Below, piece by piece: positions 17,875 to 23,106 of a stretch of DNA of 64,000 bases (the first letter of the stretch is position 1; each line of letters starts with the position of its first letter). The position numbers and the translations under genes are program-made. The DNA is taken from NCBI GenBank assembly GCA_011390645.1, contig JAABRY010000001.1:7192-71191 (forward strand), given 5' to 3'. The notes below the pieces were generated by a model that was not told where the DNA came from, did no database searches, and was given only the letters and a program-made list of their open reading frames with translations. Source of the DNA: Gemmatimonadota bacterium (GTDB lineage Bacteria; Gemmatimonadota; Gemmatimonadetes; Gemmatimonadales; GWC2-71-9).

Positions 17875-19164
17875 TCAGCCCACCATTCGGCCCGCGCCGG
17901 GCGTCTGGGTGGTCACGAAAAATTCCGCCCGCGGCTCGCGGGCTGGGAAGCTGGCGAGATACTCCCGCCGCCAGGTGGTCGCAAACTCGGCGGCCCCGTT
18001 GGTGTGCACCAACGCCCAGACGCTCCCCCCAAATCCCGCCCCGAACGCCGAAGCGGCGGTGGCACCGAGGCGACCGGCACTCTCGACCAGACTCACGGTT
18101 TCCGGGACCTGATTGCGCAGCACCGTCTCGGCAAGCTGCTGGGATCGCGCCACCGGGGCCCCGACATCGGGGACGATGCCGGCGGCCAAGGCTGTGGTGA
18201 CCGCGGGAATGATCTCCAGGCATTCCGCCCGAAACTGGTCGAGGCGCTGCTGGAGAATCGCTGGCGCGCTGCCGAATCGTGCGGCCAATTCGTGGAGCCG
18301 GGTGGCGGCCGCGGGGGCTGATTCGAGGACCGTGAGGAGCGAGGTGGCGTGCGGGTCCACGTGGGTGCACCACAGGGCGAGCAGTTCTTCCACCTCAGCG
18401 GCGAGCGCGTTGTAGCGCGCCTGCACCGCGCCGGCCTTCGGGGCGTGGACCCCGCTGGAGGCGACCACGAACGACCAGCCTGCAGGCACCGGAATCCGCC
18501 GTTCGGCGCGCGTCGGGAGGTAGCGATACTGGACGATCTCCCCTTCGGCACACCGCAGGATGGCTGTGTGGTCCTGGCTCCCGCCCTGCGTCCCGACCCC
18601 GAAGTCGGTCGGGAACGGACCGAACGCACGGCCGTTCTCCAGCGCGCCCAGGTATTCCGCCAGCGCGTCGGCGTCCGGGATCGCCGCACGGTATCCGGGG
18701 TGCTCCTCGAGGTGATTCGCCGCGGCGAGCGGGAGGAAGGTCGCGATGACGAGTGCGCTCGACGACGACAGGCCCGCGGCAGACGGGAGGGAGGACGAGA
18801 TCACCATGTCGAGTCCGCGGTGCGCGTCGGGAAAGTCACGCGCCACCCGACGCAGCACGGTGCGGGGATAGTCAGTCCATTGCGCGGGAGCAGCGGGAAG
18901 GGATGGGCTGAGCACGGCATCGAGTCGCGATCCCGTGCGCGCATCGACGACGTGGACGGCCGCATCGGTGCGGGGACGCGACACGACGTGAAAGCCGCGA
19001 TCCACGGTCGCGAGCAGTGATCTCCCCCCCCCATAATCCACGTGCTTGCCGAGGATCTCGATGCGCCCCGGGACCCACCAACGGTCTGCGCGGGCCATGT
19101 CACCGAAGGTGGCGGCGAAGCGTCGTTCGGCACGCTGCAGGCCGCCGTCGCGCGTGCGTGTCAT
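17875..19164 (-). CDS. GHMP kinase, galactokinase family (sugar anomeric kinase)
   Basis: GRIEILGKHVDYGGG (galactokinase signature-like) and the GHMP motif SSLPSAAGLSSSSA. ATG overlaps the upstream TGA (ATGA). Confidence 0.8.
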   Translation of the reverse strand: MTRTRDGGLQRAERRFAATFGDMARADRWWVPGRIEILGKHVDYGGGRSLLATVDRGFHVVSRPRTDAAVHVVDARTGSRLDAVLSPSLPAAPAQWTDYPRTVLRRVARDFPDAHRGLDMVISSSLPSAAGLSSSSALVIATFLPLAAANHLEEHPGYRAAIPDADALAEYLGALENGRAFGPFPTDFGVGTQGGSQDHTAILRCAEGEIVQYRYLPTRAERRIPVPAGWSFVVASSGVHAPKAGAVQARYNALAAEVEELLALWCTHVDPHATSLLTVLESAPAAATRLHELAARFGSAPAILQQRLDQFRAECLEIIPAVTTALAAGIVPDVGAPVARSQQLAETVLRNQVPETVSLVESAGRLGATAASAFGAGFGGSVWALVHTNGAAEFATTWRREYLASFPAREPRAEFFVTTQTPGAGRMVG

Positions 19165-19973
19165 GGTGCGATCTCGGCCTGCGCGAGACGCGAGGCCACG
19201 TCCACGACATCCCGTCGGTGGGAGAGGTCGAGCACCCCGGCGCGAAGGCGAACCGCCTGGAACGTCATCCCCCGCGTGATCGCGAGTGCAACAGCCGCCG
19301 GCAGCTCGAACTCGCCACGAGGGGACCGCGACACGTCCCGACAGGCGGGGAAGATCCGGTCGTCGAAACGCCAGAGGTTCATCGAGATGAGGGGGGCGTC
19401 GTGCACATCATTCGGATCGGGCTTCTCCTCGATGGACGCGAGGGTGCCGTCGCGTGCAAGGGTCACGATCGCGAACGCGGCCACCCGTTCCGGGGGGATG
19501 TTCCCCTCGGCACTCAGCCCATCAGCTTCAAACGCGACCAGGCCCGGCGCGCCCAGCGCCACCAATGCCTGCAGGGCCGTGGCGGGGTAGAGGTTGTCGG
19601 CATTCATCACGAGAAACGAGGCGCCGGCGGTCCACGGCTCCGCGGTGAGCAGCGCATTGGCGGTGCCGAGGGGCTCGGGTTGCAGCGCCCACGCCAGTCG
19701 CACGCGCCGCGGCGGGTGTGCGGCGTAGTGCGTGCGAATTGCGTCGCCACCGGGGCCGACCACCAGACAGATGTCGGTGATGCCGACGTCGGCAAGTCCC
19801 GAGAGGATGTGGTCGAACAAGGGCCGGCCGCGGGCATCGGGGATCATCCCCTTGATCCCCCCCCCAGCCGCTGCGGCCTGTGCAGGATCCAGTGGCGCGT
19901 CGGGATCGGGGCGCTGCATGCGCGACCCGCGCCCACCAGCGAGCACCACGGCCCGCACGAGGGGCGGGATCAC
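19161..19973 (-). CDS. Sugar-1-phosphate nucleotidyltransferase (NTP_transferase family)
   Basis: AVVLAGGRGSRM N-terminal motif. GTG at 19973 overlaps the symporter stop (GTGA). Confidence 0.8.
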   Translation of the reverse strand: MIPPLVRAVVLAGGRGSRMQRPDPDAPLDPAQAAAAGGGIKGMIPDARGRPLFDHILSGLADVGITDICLVVGPGGDAIRTHYAAHPPRRVRLAWALQPEPLGTANALLTAEPWTAGASFLVMNADNLYPATALQALVALGAPGLVAFEADGLSAEGNIPPERVAAFAIVTLARDGTLASIEEKPDPNDVHDAPLISMNLWRFDDRIFPACRDVSRSPRGEFELPAAVALAITRGMTFQAVRLRAGVLDLSHRRDVVDVASRLAQAEIAP

Positions 19974-21766: not shown

Positions 21767-23106
21767 GCGCCGCGCGTGAAGTCGGGGAAGCGCACCGGGG
21801 CGCTCGAGAGGGCCAGTGAGGCCTCGCTGAGCGGCCAGGGCGCACTCAGCGCGGCGGCATCATAGACATCAAAGTCAGGCGGCAGGCCTTCACGCATCGT
21901 CTCGATCAGGCGGAAGGCCATGATGTAATCCATCCCGCCGTGACCACCCTTGGCGCGCGCGATGTCGCCGATGCGCTGCCAGAGGGGATGGGTGTAGCGC
22001 GCCTTCACCGCATCGTCGATCGGCCGGAAGCGGTGCCCGCCCTCCTGGCCCTCCAGATACAGCCGCGCGGGGTAGTCCTTGAACACGCCCTTGGTGCCGC
22101 GGACGCTGTTGAGGCGATCATACGGTGTCGGGAGTGTCACGTTGTGCTGCAACAACACGGTCTTGCCACGCACGGTCTTGACCAGTGACGTGTTGATGTC
22201 ACCCGCGCGGTAGGTCTCGTCCCACTTCGGGTTGTCACGCGGTATATGCGTCGCGCGCCAGTCGGTCAGCCCCGCTTCAGGCGTGGACATGCTGACGAGG
22301 TAGTCGAAACGATCGCCCCCATGCACGTCGAGGAACCACGCCACCGGCCCCAGGCCGTGCGTCGGGTAGAAGTTGCCGTCGCGGTTGGTGTGCGGCGTCC
22401 GTCGCCACAACCCTTCGTCCTTGTCCTCGAACAGGATGCCGCGGAGGTCATGGATGTAGGCGGCCTCGGCGTACAACACGTCACCGAACGCGCCCTCCTT
22501 CACCATCCGGTCCACCAGCATCTCATTGAAGTCGTAGCAGCAGTTCTCCATCATCAGGCAGTGCTTCCGGCTGCGCTCCGATTCGTGCACCAGCGCCCAG
22601 CAATCCTCGATCGAGTGTGCGGCAGGCACCTCGGTGGCCGCGTGCTTGCCAGCACGCATCGCTGCCAGGCACACCGGCACGTGCCAGTCCCACGGGGTGG
22701 CGGTGTAGACGATGTCGATGTCATCCCGGCGGACCAACTGCTCGAAGGCCGTGTCGCCATCGGTGTAGAGTGCCGGGCGCGGTCGGCCGGCATCGGTGAC
22801 CATCTTCGCGGCCCGCTCGGCCTTCTCCGGGACATTGTCGCACAGCGCCGTGATCTCCACGCCATCGACGGCGAGGAACTCTCGCAGCACCGAGCGCCCG
22901 CGAAGCCCCGTTCCCACGATCGCGAGTCGCACGGTGCTGTGTGTGGTGAAGGGCACCCCGAGCATCGAACTCGCCCCGACGGGGCGTGGTGGGGGGGGGA
23001 GTGCTGCGCCGACCTCCGGAAGTGCGGCGAACGCCGCGCTGGCCAGACCGGCGGCCTTGAGGAGTTCGCGCCGCGAGAGCGGGGCGTCGGAGGAACCGTG
23101 GGCCAT
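21739..23106 (-). CDS. Gfo/Idh/MocA-fold oxidoreductase with Tat signal, GH109 (alpha-N-acetylgalactosaminidase)-like
   Basis: Tat motif SRRELLKAAGLASAAF. Rossmann motif RLAIVGTGLRG. Overall GH109-like layout. ATG at 23106. Confidence 0.75.
   Translation of the reverse strand: MAHGSSDAPLSRRELLKAAGLASAAFAALPEVGAALPPPPRPVGASSMLGVPFTTHSTVRLAIVGTGLRGRSVLREFLAVDGVEITALCDNVPEKAERAAKMVTDAGRPRPALYTDGDTAFEQLVRRDDIDIVYTATPWDWHVPVCLAAMRAGKHAATEVPAAHSIEDCWALVHESERSRKHCLMMENCCYDFNEMLVDRMVKEGAFGDVLYAEAAYIHDLRGILFEDKDEGLWRRTPHTNRDGNFYPTHGLGPVAWFLDVHGGDRFDYLVSMSTPEAGLTDWRATHIPRDNPKWDETYRAGDINTSLVKTVRGKTVLLQHNVTLPTPYDRLNSVRGTKGVFKDYPARLYLEGQEGGHRFRPIDDAVKARYTHPLWQRIGDIARAKGGHGGMDYIMAFRLIETMREGLPPDFDVYDAAALSAPWPLSEASLALSSAPVRFPDFTRGAWDGPRRSR

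Follow-up and report, generated by a model that had tools for sequence, protein, structure and literature searches.

The window, the whole 64,000-nucleotide stretch of DNA that was analysed, comes from a soil bacterium of the Gemmatimonadota. Read on its minus strand, it carries four consecutive open reading frames. Exact matches to all four proteins (455, 590, 270 and 429 amino acids, in the order of the genes) are present in a public collection, so the same starts were picked by independent gene callers. The features of the locus are as follows.

23107..23212, no strand: divergent intergenic region of 106 nt, flanked by the operon and an amino-acid permease gene and presumed to hold the promoter (position only)
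21739..23106, minus strand: GH109-family NAD-dependent exo-glycosidase, predicted periplasmic alpha/beta-N-acetylgalactosaminidase (Pfam, PDB matches)
23056..23076, minus strand: Tat (twin-arginine) export motif S-R-R-E-L-L-K, residues 11-17 of the GH109 protein (sequence, TIGR01409)
22456-22458 and 22357-22359, minus strand: equivalents of catalytic residues, Y217 and H250 (HMMER alignment to 6T2B)
21934..21948, minus strand: GGHGG loop, residues 387-391, with H389 (same alignment)
21739..21742, minus strand: GTGA overlap of GH109 stop and SSF start, AGGAG 3 nt upstream (sequence)
19970..21742, minus strand: sodium:solute symporter family transporter, predicted importer of the released sugar (Pfam SSF, 3.1e-30)
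19970..19973, minus strand: GTGA overlap of SSF stop and nucleotidyltransferase start (sequence)
19161..19973, minus strand: sugar-1-phosphate nucleotidyltransferase (Pfam NTP_transferase, 1.7e-14)
19920-19943, minus strand: nucleotidyltransferase motif L-A-G-G-R-G-S-R (sequence)
19659-19682, minus strand: nucleotidyltransferase motif Q-P-E-P-L-G-T-A (sequence)
19419-19427, minus strand: nucleotidyltransferase motif E-K-P (sequence)
19161..19164, minus strand: ATGA overlap of nucleotidyltransferase stop and kinase start (sequence)
17875..19164, minus strand: galactokinase-like GHMP anomeric sugar kinase (Pfam, predicted fold)
19018-19071, minus strand: kinase sugar-binding signature P-G-R-I-E-I-L-G-K-H-V-D-Y-G-G-G-R-S (sequence)
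18751-18789, minus strand: kinase GHMP motif L-P-S-A-A-G-L-S-S-S-S-A-L (sequence)
18571-18573, minus strand: kinase D198, aligned to the catalytic-base Asp (alignment)

The GTGA and ATGA overlaps that the preliminary description had placed at the second and third junctions are found there on the sequence, and the first overlap, which it had called possible, uses a start at 21742 that agrees with the public gene calls. Using for each junction the in-frame start closest to the stop codon of the preceding gene, a procedure somewhat biased towards overlaps, we found a 4-nt stop/start overlap available at 10/10 homologous GH109>SSF junctions, 19/34 SSF>nucleotidyltransferase junctions, 37/61 adjacent nucleotidyltransferase>kinase pairs and 3/3 loci with the reversed kinase>nucleotidyltransferase order, and this frequency exceeds the chance rate, which we estimate at ~20-25% (one frame in three, times a non-C base before TGA). 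The 106-nt region was searched for a sigma-70-like promoter, an Rfam match and an inverted repeat, and none was found; for the operon, neither a promoter nor a terminator was detected. Beyond the divergent permease gene, two genes upstream, an NlpC/P60 peptidoglycan hydrolase is encoded.

The first gene matched Pfam Glyco_hydro_109_C (E 4.6e-48) and GFO_IDH_MocA (E 1.6e-13) and, in the PDB, AmGH109A of Akkermansia (6T2B, E 2e-101, 41% identity) and NagA (2IXA, 8e-67). Tyr226, His259 and His404 of AmGH109A, whose catalytic roles are summarised in PMC10755693, correspond in the HMMER alignment to Y217, H250 and H389, and the Tyr/His/His trio is intact in 21/21 linked GH109 homologues. The solved GH109 matches and the retained trio argue against an ordinary Gfo/Idh/MocA dehydrogenase. 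Other GH109-annotated proteins (Fervidibacter) resisted activity assays, and GH109 activity cannot be assumed. The JGI label of the gene is 'predicted dehydrogenase'. TIGR01409 scored 17.2 bits (cutoff 16.7), and the domain match, the catalytic residues and the Tat motif bear out the earlier view of a GH109-like, putatively Tat-exported protein. Tat export would fit an enzyme that needs to fold around NAD+ before its exit from the cytoplasm, for which glucose-fructose oxidoreductase of Zymomonas provides a precedent.

The nearest solved relatives of the symporter were the Na+/galactose transporter vSGLT (1.2e-29) and SGLT1/2; the galactose-site residues of vSGLT were checked in it and are not retained. 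JGI labels this protein 'Na+/proline symporter'. The top NCBIfam models for the nucleotidyltransferase were AglF (UDP-glucose pyrophosphorylase, 1.3e-30) and archaeal GlmU (2.1e-25), both under their cutoffs, and the profile of its family matched RmlA, YngB/GalU and ST0452 at 1e-15 to 1e-17. Its G-x-G-x-R, Q-x-x-P-x-G-T-A and E-K-P are the motifs of UTP/dTTP sugar-1-phosphate nucleotidyltransferases.

The kinase exceeded the gathering scores of GalKase_gal_bdg, GHMP_kinases_N and GHMP_kinases_C. The top Foldseek matches of its AlphaFold model (pLDDT 90.6) were all GalK or human GalNAc kinase (TM 0.72-0.79), and by this predicted fold it is a member of the galactokinase structural subfamily. 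Arg36, Asp45 and Tyr233 of L. lactis GalK align with R34, D43 and Y251, and the catalytic Asp of human GalNAc kinase with D198; the aligned counterparts of the catalytic Arg and Asp are both retained, as are 4/5 of the galactose-anchoring residues. Domains, fold and aligned residues agree with the galactokinase-family GHMP kinase named in the preliminary description, and the fold together with the retained Arg and Asp argues against a kinase for a non-sugar substrate. The curated galactokinase model was not reached (86 bits against a cutoff of 227). In the kinase family alignment (A1) the Glu of the GalK signature is substituted in every member; Lys (Lys40) occupies this sugar-binding position in 142/150 diverse representatives, and Arg48 is present in 98/144 sequences. 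Because this Lys replaces the Glu of both GalK and human GalNAc kinase, the pocket is unlike that of every characterised relative. Within the galactokinase family, the operon kinase represents a branch that is uncharacterised but very widespread, and the system is found in at least 592 species.

Conservation of the neighbourhood, which had been suggested as a check, was found in Gemmatimonadota, Acidobacteriota, Planctomycetota and others. The nucleotidyltransferase adjoins the kinase in 62/72 loci of at least five phyla, which rules out an unconserved neighbourhood, and in 39/63 loci no more than 3 kb separate the symporter from the kinase. The linkage is reinforced by in-frame fusions, which occur in several lineages and in both orders: nucleotidyltransferase~kinase in P0301, P0418, P0447 (two independent samples), P0504 and P0523, and kinase~nucleotidyltransferase in P0408 and P0409. 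All four functions were found in three arrangements, namely GH109-SSF-nucleotidyltransferase-kinase (10 loci), GH109 3′ of the kinase (at least 10 loci, of which 6 have the four genes in one cluster) and [nucleotidyltransferase~kinase]-SSF-GH109 (L081). GH109 is present in just 14/50 fully flanked loci. The glycosidase slot, either upstream of SSF or downstream of the kinase, is occupied by GH109 (20 loci), a GH36-like protein of Tat type (12) or GH20 (6). The conserved core is the nucleotidyltransferase-kinase pair, usually with the symporter, and the exported glycosidase at the front of the route can be exchanged, being GH109 in the window and a GH20 or GH36-like enzyme in other lineages. 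To our knowledge, the known activities of these three families overlap only in GalNAc. Among the homologous loci, no epimerase or glycosyltransferase was consistently linked to the module.

We propose, with a probability of about 65%, that the four genes serve to scavenge a glycan sugar and convert it to a nucleotide-sugar, by way of release, import and C1-phosphorylation. The sugar is probably of the galactose type, GalNAc, as this is the common product of the GH109, GH20 and GH36-like enzymes of the slot. In this proposal, in which all catalytic activities, the identities of sugar and nucleotide and the product's fate are inferred, the GH109 enzyme would fold around NAD+ in the cytoplasm, reach the periplasm through the Tat system and there cut a terminal galacto-configured sugar, most likely N-acetylgalactosamine, off glycans. 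The free sugar would enter the cell via the symporter, the GHMP kinase would phosphorylate it at C1 with ATP, and the nucleotidyltransferase would form a UDP-sugar from the sugar-1-phosphate and UTP (or dTTP); this product may serve envelope or glycan synthesis directly or via a 4-epimerase encoded elsewhere. The same sequence of release, import, C1-phosphorylation and nucleotide activation had been put forward in the preliminary description, and families, predicted fold, catalytic residues, linkage and fusions are consistent with it.

Since the best fold and sequence matches of the kinase are galactokinases and 4/5 galactose-anchoring residues are retained, the locus could also be an 'Isselbacher-type' variant of the Leloir pathway, with the kinase as the organism's galactokinase and the nucleotidyltransferase standing in for GalT as the source of UDP-galactose. 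GalE and central metabolism would follow, and the glycosidases would be hydrolases of galactosides or mixed glycans. GH36-like and GH35 beta-galactosidase neighbours (L030, L058, L059, L083), a GalE-like epimerase that adjoins the module in L062, and the absence of GalT, looked for in the 64-kb window, would agree with this. We consider it unlikely, as the glycosidase in the window is GH109, whose sole characterised activity is on GalNAc, GH20 neighbours free HexNAc and not galactose, the signature Glu is substituted throughout the family, and the curated GalK model is missed by a wide margin. The Glu-to-Lys hallmark and the frequent Arg48 would be accounted for if the same logic served another sugar, either an acidic or C6-modified galacto-sugar (GalNAcA/GalA) or L-arabinose, with the loop Lys, and often the Arg, binding a carboxylate or filling the C6 pocket. 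Human GalNAc kinase retains the Glu, so GalNAc alone does not explain its replacement, and plants salvage GalA, GlcA and L-Ara by GHMP kinases and UDP-sugar pyrophosphorylase (PMC6329318). However, the linked GH109, GH20, GH36-like and GH35 families are not known to free uronic acids or arabinose, and pectin or uronate genes were looked for nearby and none was found, which leaves this reading quite unlikely.

A positive residue in the pocket could likewise bind a lactyl carboxylate, as expected if the kinase and nucleotidyltransferase were a GHMP-type analogue of AmgK-MurU that recycles the peptidoglycan amino sugars MurNAc or GlcNAc. The nucleotidyltransferase weakly resembles MurU (NCBIfam 7e-8) and P. 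putida MurU 4Y7T, and the linkage to NlpC/P60 is kept in close relatives. This reading is highly improbable, since that linkage is limited to close Gemmatimonadales, with the divergent permease in between, no linked glycosidase is of a muramidase, NagZ or NamZ type, the score with the MurU model is 32.5 bits where 250 are required, and the kinase still has the aligned counterpart of the Asp with which GalK reads the axial O4. The JGI labels of the first gene and the transporter would suit four mere neighbours with no joint function, the first encoding a periplasmic sugar dehydrogenase. The conservation in shuffled order across phyla and the fusions in both orders argue strongly against this, and with overlaps at all three junctions and intact GH109 catalytic residues it is hardly credible.

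The preliminary description had suggested that the gene combination might be an undescribed variant, on the ground that known bacterial salvage pairs use different kinase families, which overlooks Fkp of Bacteroides. Because Fkp pairs a GHMP fucokinase with a GDP-fucose pyrophosphorylase, the logic is not new; the pairing of an anomeric kinase with a pyrophosphorylase has precedents in Fkp, GALK2/AGX1, AmgK-MurU and NahK. What stands as new is the kinase family and the gene combination, and our literature search found no account of an operon that combines GH109 with genes for import and activation.

Human GALK2 (a GHMP GalNAc 1-kinase, 2A2C) and AGX1/UAP1 carry out the chemistry predicted here, GalNAc > GalNAc-1-P > UDP-GalNAc, and GALK2 shares the galactokinase structural subfamily with the operon kinase (TM 0.76-0.79). 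The two kinases are ~20% identical, the Glu of G-E-H-x-D-Y in GALK2 is Lys in the operon kinase, AGX1 is of a different pyrophosphorylase family, and the human system is eukaryotic and has no operon. The bacterial salvage of amino sugars by AmgK-MurU (in Pseudomonas and Tannerella) and by NahK (in the GNB/LNB pathway of Bifidobacterium) also leads from an anomeric kinase to a UDP-sugar, bypassing de novo synthesis, and MurU has the NTP_transferase fold of the operon enzyme. In contrast, AmgK and NahK are APH/protein-kinase-like phosphotransferases and not GHMP kinases, NahK is followed by a GalT-type uridylyltransferase and not a pyrophosphorylase, and the operon nucleotidyltransferase falls under the MurU equivalog cutoff. 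Fkp of Bacteroides fragilis, a bifunctional L-fucokinase/GDP-L-fucose pyrophosphorylase (PMC11982464, PMC6468028), likewise serves bacterial salvage with a GHMP anomeric kinase and an NTP_transferase-fold pyrophosphorylase, the latter N-terminal as in the nucleotidyltransferase~kinase fusions. Its kinase belongs to another GHMP subfamily, and a PDB search with the operon kinase-family profile at E<=0.001 retrieved only GalK, GALK2 and more distant GHMP kinases such as mevalonate kinase, and no chain of Fkp. The product of Fkp is a GDP-sugar, whereas the operon enzyme has the Gln motif of UTP/dTTP enzymes, and Fkp does not share one operon with an exported glycosidase and a symporter. A GHMP anomeric kinase also feeds a pyrophosphorylase, recycling released wall sugars, in plants (GalAK, arabinokinase and glucuronokinase with UDP-sugar pyrophosphorylase), and the zebrafish glucuronokinase/pyrophosphorylase is a kinase/transferase fusion (PMC3938481, PMC6329318); these systems are eukaryotic, act on other substrates and lack a coupled exported glycosidase or transporter. 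The first gene itself has the family domains, NAD-binding Rossmann fold, Tyr/His/His trio and GGHGG loop of NagA (Elizabethkingia) and AmGH109A, with 41% identity to the latter; those enzymes come from animal-associated bacteria, whereas this one belongs to a soil Gemmatimonadota and shares its operon with import and activation genes.

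The four minus-strand genes form a tightly coupled operon, which the preliminary description had read as a route of release, import, C1-phosphorylation and nucleotide activation. The genes, their junctions and the flanking genes are as follows.

21739-23106, minus strand: GH109-like gene (ORF, 455 aa)
19970-21742, minus strand: SSS symporter gene (ORF, 590 aa)
19161-19973, minus strand: nucleotidyltransferase gene (ORF, 270 aa)
17875-19164, minus strand: GHMP kinase gene (ORF, 429 aa)
21742-21739, minus strand: GTGA overlap, GH109/symporter junction
19973-19970, minus strand: GTGA overlap, symporter/transferase junction
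19164-19161, minus strand: ATGA overlap, transferase/kinase junction
15747-17783, minus strand: Ser/Thr protein kinase gene, ~90 nt downstream of the sugar kinase gene, with a zinc-ribbon-like CxxC...CxxC N-terminal part and C-terminal Sel1 repeats
Upstream of the operon, divergent: amino-acid permease gene

In the window sequence the three stop/start overlaps lie exactly where they had been reported. AGGAG is found 3 nt upstream of the GTG start at 21742, and all four proteins with these starts are exact sequences in a public protein collection; independent gene callers therefore chose the same starts. Pfam domains scored above their gathering scores in all four (GH109_C and GFO_IDH_MocA; SSF; NTP_transferase; GalKase_gal_bdg and GHMP_kinases_N/C). 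The remaining genes of the window, a Gemmatimonadota sequence with a G+C content of ~67%, belong to amino-acid, peptide and polyamine metabolism, and no sugar genes were found outside the operon within the window, so that the operon is an isolated sugar island there. A promoter and terminator scan of the operon returned no promoter, and the sole terminator-like hairpin (17927-17943) was rejected, as it lies inside the kinase coding region. The flanking intergenic regions contained no Rfam match, riboswitch, or inverted or operator-like repeat.

Other features of the window were recorded along the way. The Ser/Thr kinase/Sel1 gene also follows the module in nine close Gemmatimonadales relatives. 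On the other side, at 23213-27014, the order amino-acid permease, NlpC/P60 hydrolase, SIMPL/DUF541 and arginase-family protein recurs beside the module among close relatives in the Gemmatimonadales (L002, L006, L010-L012 and L027; L numbers denote loci from other genomes that carry kinase relatives), and seems to reflect inherited synteny, without belonging to the module. G or C homopolymer runs of 7 nt or more number 25 in the window, 15 of them exactly 9 nt long (three consecutive GGG or CCC codons), ~3 times the base-composition expectation. Each operon gene has one G9/C9 tract (19024-19032, 19857-19865, 20960-20968 and 22991-22999) and 21 further sites lie elsewhere in the window; being scattered over the whole window and not operon-specific, the tracts were rejected as phase-variation switches. 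At 849-5356 (plus strand), DHDPS-like, proline-racemase-like, DAO-type and FAD/NAD oxidoreductase genes stand in a row resembling a hydroxyproline catabolism cluster. Overlapping minus-strand agmatine deiminase (PAD_porph) and CN-hydrolase genes within 46338-50201 make up an agmatine-to-putrescine pair, divergent from which is a second SSF-family transporter gene (48447-50201), unrelated to the operon symporter. At 40675-44158 (plus strand) a tandem pair of amidase-family genes (574 and 613 aa) shows an apparent ~80-nt overlap in longest-ORF calls.

The first gene product carries both CAZy GH109 domains, the C-terminal PF21252 (163.4 bits, cutoff 27) and the N-terminal NAD-binding Rossmann domain PF01408 (51.9 bits, cutoff 24). 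It matched the solved enzyme AmGH109A (6T2B) with an E-value of 2e-101 and 41% identity over 415 columns, and NagA (2IXA) at 8e-67, while ordinary Gfo/Idh/MocA oxidoreductases matched at only ~1e-12. A paper citing the AmGH109A work gives His404 (in the GGHGG loop), Tyr226 and His259 as the proposed catalytic residues of that enzyme (PMC10755693). With an offset of 25 between native numbering and the 6T2B chain, these positions read Y, H and H in the chain, and they align with Y217 (Tyr226), H250 (His259) and H389 (His404) of the window protein, whose GGHGG spans residues 387-391. The 21 GH109 homologues that are linked to kinase relatives in other genomes all retain the Tyr/His/His set. By every available test, then, the protein is predicted to be a real GH109 glycosidase, as proposed earlier, and not an ordinary dehydrogenase. 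Its N-terminus has SRRELLK followed by the hydrophobic stretch AAGLASAAFAAL, in keeping with the Tat consensus S/T-R-R-x-F-L-K plus hydrophobic stretch, and scored marginally with TIGR01409 (17.2 bits, cutoff 16.7). We read it as a predicted Tat signal for export, a route that would fit an enzyme needing NAD+ bound prior to export. Those GH109 enzymes that have been characterised act on alpha- as well as beta-linked GalNAc and set alpha-GalNAc free from either. The predicted NAD+-dependent alpha-/beta-N-acetylgalactosaminidase activity should nevertheless be taken with caution, as many GH109-annotated proteins failed assays elsewhere, among them 31 expressed GH109/177/179-annotated enzymes of Fervidibacter that had no activity.

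The symporter belongs to the SSF family (TC 2.A.21; PF00474, 105.8 bits, cutoff 22.8), and among solved structures it is closest to the Na+/galactose symporter vSGLT (1.2e-29) and to SGLT1/2; TIGR00813 gave 119 bits against a cutoff of 184. The galactose site of vSGLT, which we take to be Q69, E88, S91, N260 and Y263 (numbering checked against the chain sequence), is not kept: T, W, F, P and E align there, in regions where the alignment is weak. The transporter's substrate therefore cannot be read from these positions, and we limit its predicted label to the general 'SGLT-like'.

The transferase is a member of the NTP_transferase family (PF00483, 54.5 bits, cutoff 21.2). Near the N-terminus it has L-A-G-G-x-G-x-R, followed by a family-specific insertion, A-L-D-P-A-Q-A-A-A-A-x-x-G-x-K, and further on Q-x-E-P-L-G-T-A with an invariant Gln, and E-K-P. 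Across 25 homologues G14, G16, R18, Q98, G103, T104 and A105 are invariant, and E183, K184 and P185 nearly so. The corresponding Gln in RmlA, GlmU and GalU contacts the uracil or thymine base. In profile searches the family is about equally far from RmlA, the YngB/GalU-type UDP-glucose pyrophosphorylases and the dual GlcNAc/Glc-1-P enzyme ST0452 (1e-15 to 1e-17), and it stayed below the cutoff of each equivalog model, namely AglF (106.6 bits, cutoff 400), archaeal GlmU (89.5, cutoff 292), RmlA-long (61.5, cutoff 320), MurU (32.5, cutoff 250) and GalU (26.3, cutoff 327). A UDP- or dTDP-sugar is therefore the likely product.

The kinase scored above cutoff with PF00288 (31.4 bits), PF08544 (27.7) and PF10509 (33.3), and the GHMP phosphate-binding motif is invariant in its family as L-P-S-A-A-G-L-S-S-S-S-A-L (class consensus P-x-x-x-G-L-S-S-S-A). 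A profile of 22 family members matched the PDB galactokinases of B. infantis (5e-29) and L. lactis (1.9e-24) and human GALK2 (1.4e-27), with mevalonate kinase and other remoter GHMP kinases far poorer. An AlphaFold model (pLDDT 90.6, pTM 0.90) gave the same picture: the top 50 Foldseek hits in the PDB were all GalK or GALK2 (E 1e-22 to 1e-24, TM 0.70-0.79, ~21% identity). Domain content and modelled fold thus agree with the sugar kinase proposed earlier, and the protein is a galactokinase-subfamily member that has diverged deeply. It is not a canonical GalK (EC 2.7.1.6), as TIGR00131 gave 86.3 bits against a cutoff of 226.65, and its signature reads G-K-H-V-D-Y instead of the galactose-binding G-E-H-x-D-Y. 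Galactose in L. lactis GalK is reportedly anchored by Arg36, Glu42, Asp45, Asp183 and Tyr233. The numbering of four of these was confirmed on the 1PIE chain (offset 20); Asp183 was unaligned there, and the catalytic Asp was mapped via the GALK2 alignment. The five anchors fall on R34, K40, D43, D198 and Y251 of the kinase, so that four are kept. Lys replaces the signature Glu in 22 of 22 aligned family members and in 142 of 150 diverse representatives, collected by a search that did not use the motif, with Glu in none of the 150. Human GALK2 retains this Glu, and GalNAc specificity alone therefore does not explain the replacement; the literature searched offered nothing usable on the role of the signature Glu or on plant GalAK determinants. 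An NCBI protein matches the kinase at 100% identity, and every named close relative of the kinase belongs to the Gemmatimonadales. The family comprises 922 representatives of 50%-identity clusters at E<=1e-30, which sources label only generically ('galactokinase family protein').

That the transferase and the kinase belong together is suggested by natural fusions, sought with the fused protein of locus L081 as query and checked against the window proteins. Five in-frame transferase~kinase fusions have an intact transferase C-terminus (P0301, P0418, P0447, P0504 and P0523, all proteins from these searches), P0447 occurring on two independent contigs from different samples and P0504 having 10 member sequences; two more (P0408 and P0409) have the opposite order. 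Single-chain loci are:

L081:2933-5104: transferase/kinase fusion
L084:8001-10196 (= L085:159-2354): transferase/kinase fusion

Two further candidates, P0410/L082 and P0411/L083, were set aside as probable frameshift artefacts of long-read assemblies, the transferase C-terminus being in another frame. Independent fusions in both orders indicate that the two enzymes act together.

A genome-contig scan with the single kinase sequence gave no match; an alignment-based scan, in which each GTDB species was represented by one genome, succeeded, with at least 592 loci or species carrying kinase relatives. The best 80 of these at least 592 loci come from Gemmatimonadota (48), Acidobacteriota (15), Planctomycetota (8), Latescibacterota, Chloroflexia, Rhodothermales and Actinomycetes (1 each) and unclassified genomes (5). 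Among these best 80, counting for each feature the loci with enough flank, the transferase directly adjoins the kinase in 62 of 72 (59 upstream, 3 downstream), a window-type symporter lies within 3 kb in 39 of 63 and GH109 within 4.5 kb in 14 of 50; the four genes cluster in 16 loci, ten of which have the gene order of the window. GH109 is placed after the kinase in at least ten other loci (L016, L022, L038, L041, L042, L046, L060, L063, L077 and L084), the gene after the kinase in L084 being a different Gfo/Idh/MocA protein, and L081 has the order [transferase~kinase]-SSF-GH109, where ATGA overlaps occur as well. Most junctions in homologous loci offer a 4-nt stop/start overlap, and five other loci have a second SSF transporter type. 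The neighbourhood, whose conservation the preliminary description had named as a check, is thus linked across several phyla and in three arrangements. That the linkage persists through these arrangements while protein identity is 45-59% strongly supports a shared function. Compared with locus L001, the symporter (89%) and GH109 (83%) are far better conserved among relatives than the transferase (58%) and the kinase (68%).

The exported glycosidase varies by lineage around an unchanged core. GH109 is near the kinase in 20 loci, a GH20 beta-N-acetylhexosaminidase in six and a 690-aa protein in 12, and 29 of the 51 fully flanked loci have one or more of these types within 5 kb of the kinase. In L043 and in L014, which is a MAG of Gemmatimonas aurantiaca, GH20 is in the operon directly after the kinase. 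Examples of the 690-aa protein among its 12 loci are:

L020:11265-13346: ~690-aa GH36-like protein
L025:5104-7200: ~690-aa GH36-like protein
L049:8837-11038: ~690-aa GH36-like protein

This protein, called 'enterotoxin' in some NCBI MAGs, had no Pfam, NCBIfam or PDB sequence match; its family has 7674 matches at E<=0.001 (proteins P0121-P0240). In its predicted structure (pLDDT 80) the best-matching folds were GH36 alpha-galactosidases and the Flavonifractor plautii GH36 blood-group-A galactosaminidase (E ~1e-22), which makes it GH36-like by model. Its N-terminus is Tat-like (T-R-R-D-F-L), and in L025, L053 and L069 it takes the place upstream of SSF that is occupied by GH109 in the window.

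GH109 enzymes are known to yield GalNAc, GH20 enzymes GlcNAc or GalNAc, and GH36 enzymes Gal, GalNAc or GalN. The sole overlap of these ranges is GalNAc, which we infer to be the substrate, and the kept Asp43 would fit a galacto-configured sugar. Galactose, catabolised by way of the pyrophosphorylase, is an unlikely alternative. It is among the GH36 products, and a GH35 beta-galactosidase sometimes stands beside the 690-aa protein (L030, L058, L059 and L083); the GH109 and GH20 ranges do not include it. Slightly less probable again is an acidic or C6-modified galacto-sugar, or L-arabinose, an idea prompted by Lys40 and Arg48 of the kinase; such sugars are in none of the three product ranges. 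Recycling of peptidoglycan amino sugars, an idea prompted by the nearby NlpC/P60 gene, is improbable; that gene is itself a member of the upstream gene order that looks inherited.

As to what becomes of a GalNAc-derived product, the immediate neighbours beyond the module are heterogeneous, and no epimerase, glycosyltransferase, Aga-type or other catabolic gene is consistently linked among them. Individual loci point to biosynthetic use, with GT2 glycosyltransferase and NDP-sugar epimerase/reductase genes after the kinase in L039, a GalE-like gene by the module in L062, and GT2 and RmlC-like genes in L081. Aga-type catabolic genes constitute the bacterial GalNAc route according to a recent review, and none were found in the window or among recurrent module neighbours. 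With scattered biosynthetic neighbours and no Aga-type genes, salvage into nucleotide-sugar pools is favoured, possibly followed by 4-epimerisation to UDP-GlcNAc. In locus L082, on a 7-Mb contig, two tandem phosphoglucomutase/phosphomannomutase-family genes (10772-13504) follow the transferase/kinase gene and could link sugar-1-phosphate with sugar-6-phosphate metabolism in that lineage.

In the most far-reaching reading, this would be the first bacterial GHMP-type GalNAc 1-kinase with a dedicated UDP-GalNAc pyrophosphorylase, in a modular 'clip, import, activate' system where exchangeable Tat-exported exo-glycosidases (GH109, GH20 and the Pfam-less GH36-like protein) feed one conserved core. 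The system would provide direct amino-sugar salvage common in Gemmatimonadota, Acidobacteriota and Planctomycetota, and the Glu>Lys change would mark a new specificity class of the galactokinase family. We give this joint reading a probability of roughly 40%. The operon suggests that these soil phyla send scavenged amino sugars straight to envelope precursors and not via central metabolism, which bears on the turnover of amino-sugar carbon and nitrogen in soil. It would give a testable function to a large, generically labelled kinase family whose host phyla are soil-abundant and physiologically obscure, and a clear physiological context to GH109 outside animal-associated bacteria. The chemoenzymatic synthesis of UDP-sugar analogues, which now depends on NahK plus AGX1 or GlmU (PMC12710852), would also benefit from a compact bacterial pair of kinase and pyrophosphorylase, or a natural fusion of the two, that handles GalNAc-type sugars.

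The literature searched yielded no description of a bacterial galactokinase-subfamily GHMP kinase with a dedicated transferase, of an operon in which such a pair is coupled with both an SSS importer and an exported NAD-dependent glycosidase, or of an exchangeable-glycosidase architecture, in line with the suggestion that the gene combination is undescribed. The module is coherent and testable, and not surprising in principle. Anomeric kinases acting with pyrophosphorylases are already known from Fkp in Bacteroides, GALK2/AGX1 in humans and AmgK-MurU and NahK in bacteria, and from GalAK, AraK and GlcAK with USP in plants and fish. The earlier statement that bacterial salvage relies on other kinase families, right for AmgK-MurU and NahK, was therefore incomplete, as it left out Fkp. 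Kinase and pyrophosphorylase are likewise fused in Bacteroides Fkp and in the zebrafish glucuronokinase/pyrophosphorylase. Fkp is one chain in which the pyrophosphorylase is N-terminal and a fucokinase-type GHMP domain is C-terminal, whereas the window has two separate genes, and the kinase-family profile reached no Fkp chain in the PDB; yet relatives of the pair are fused both ways, and by analogy it would work like Fkp without being a member of that type.
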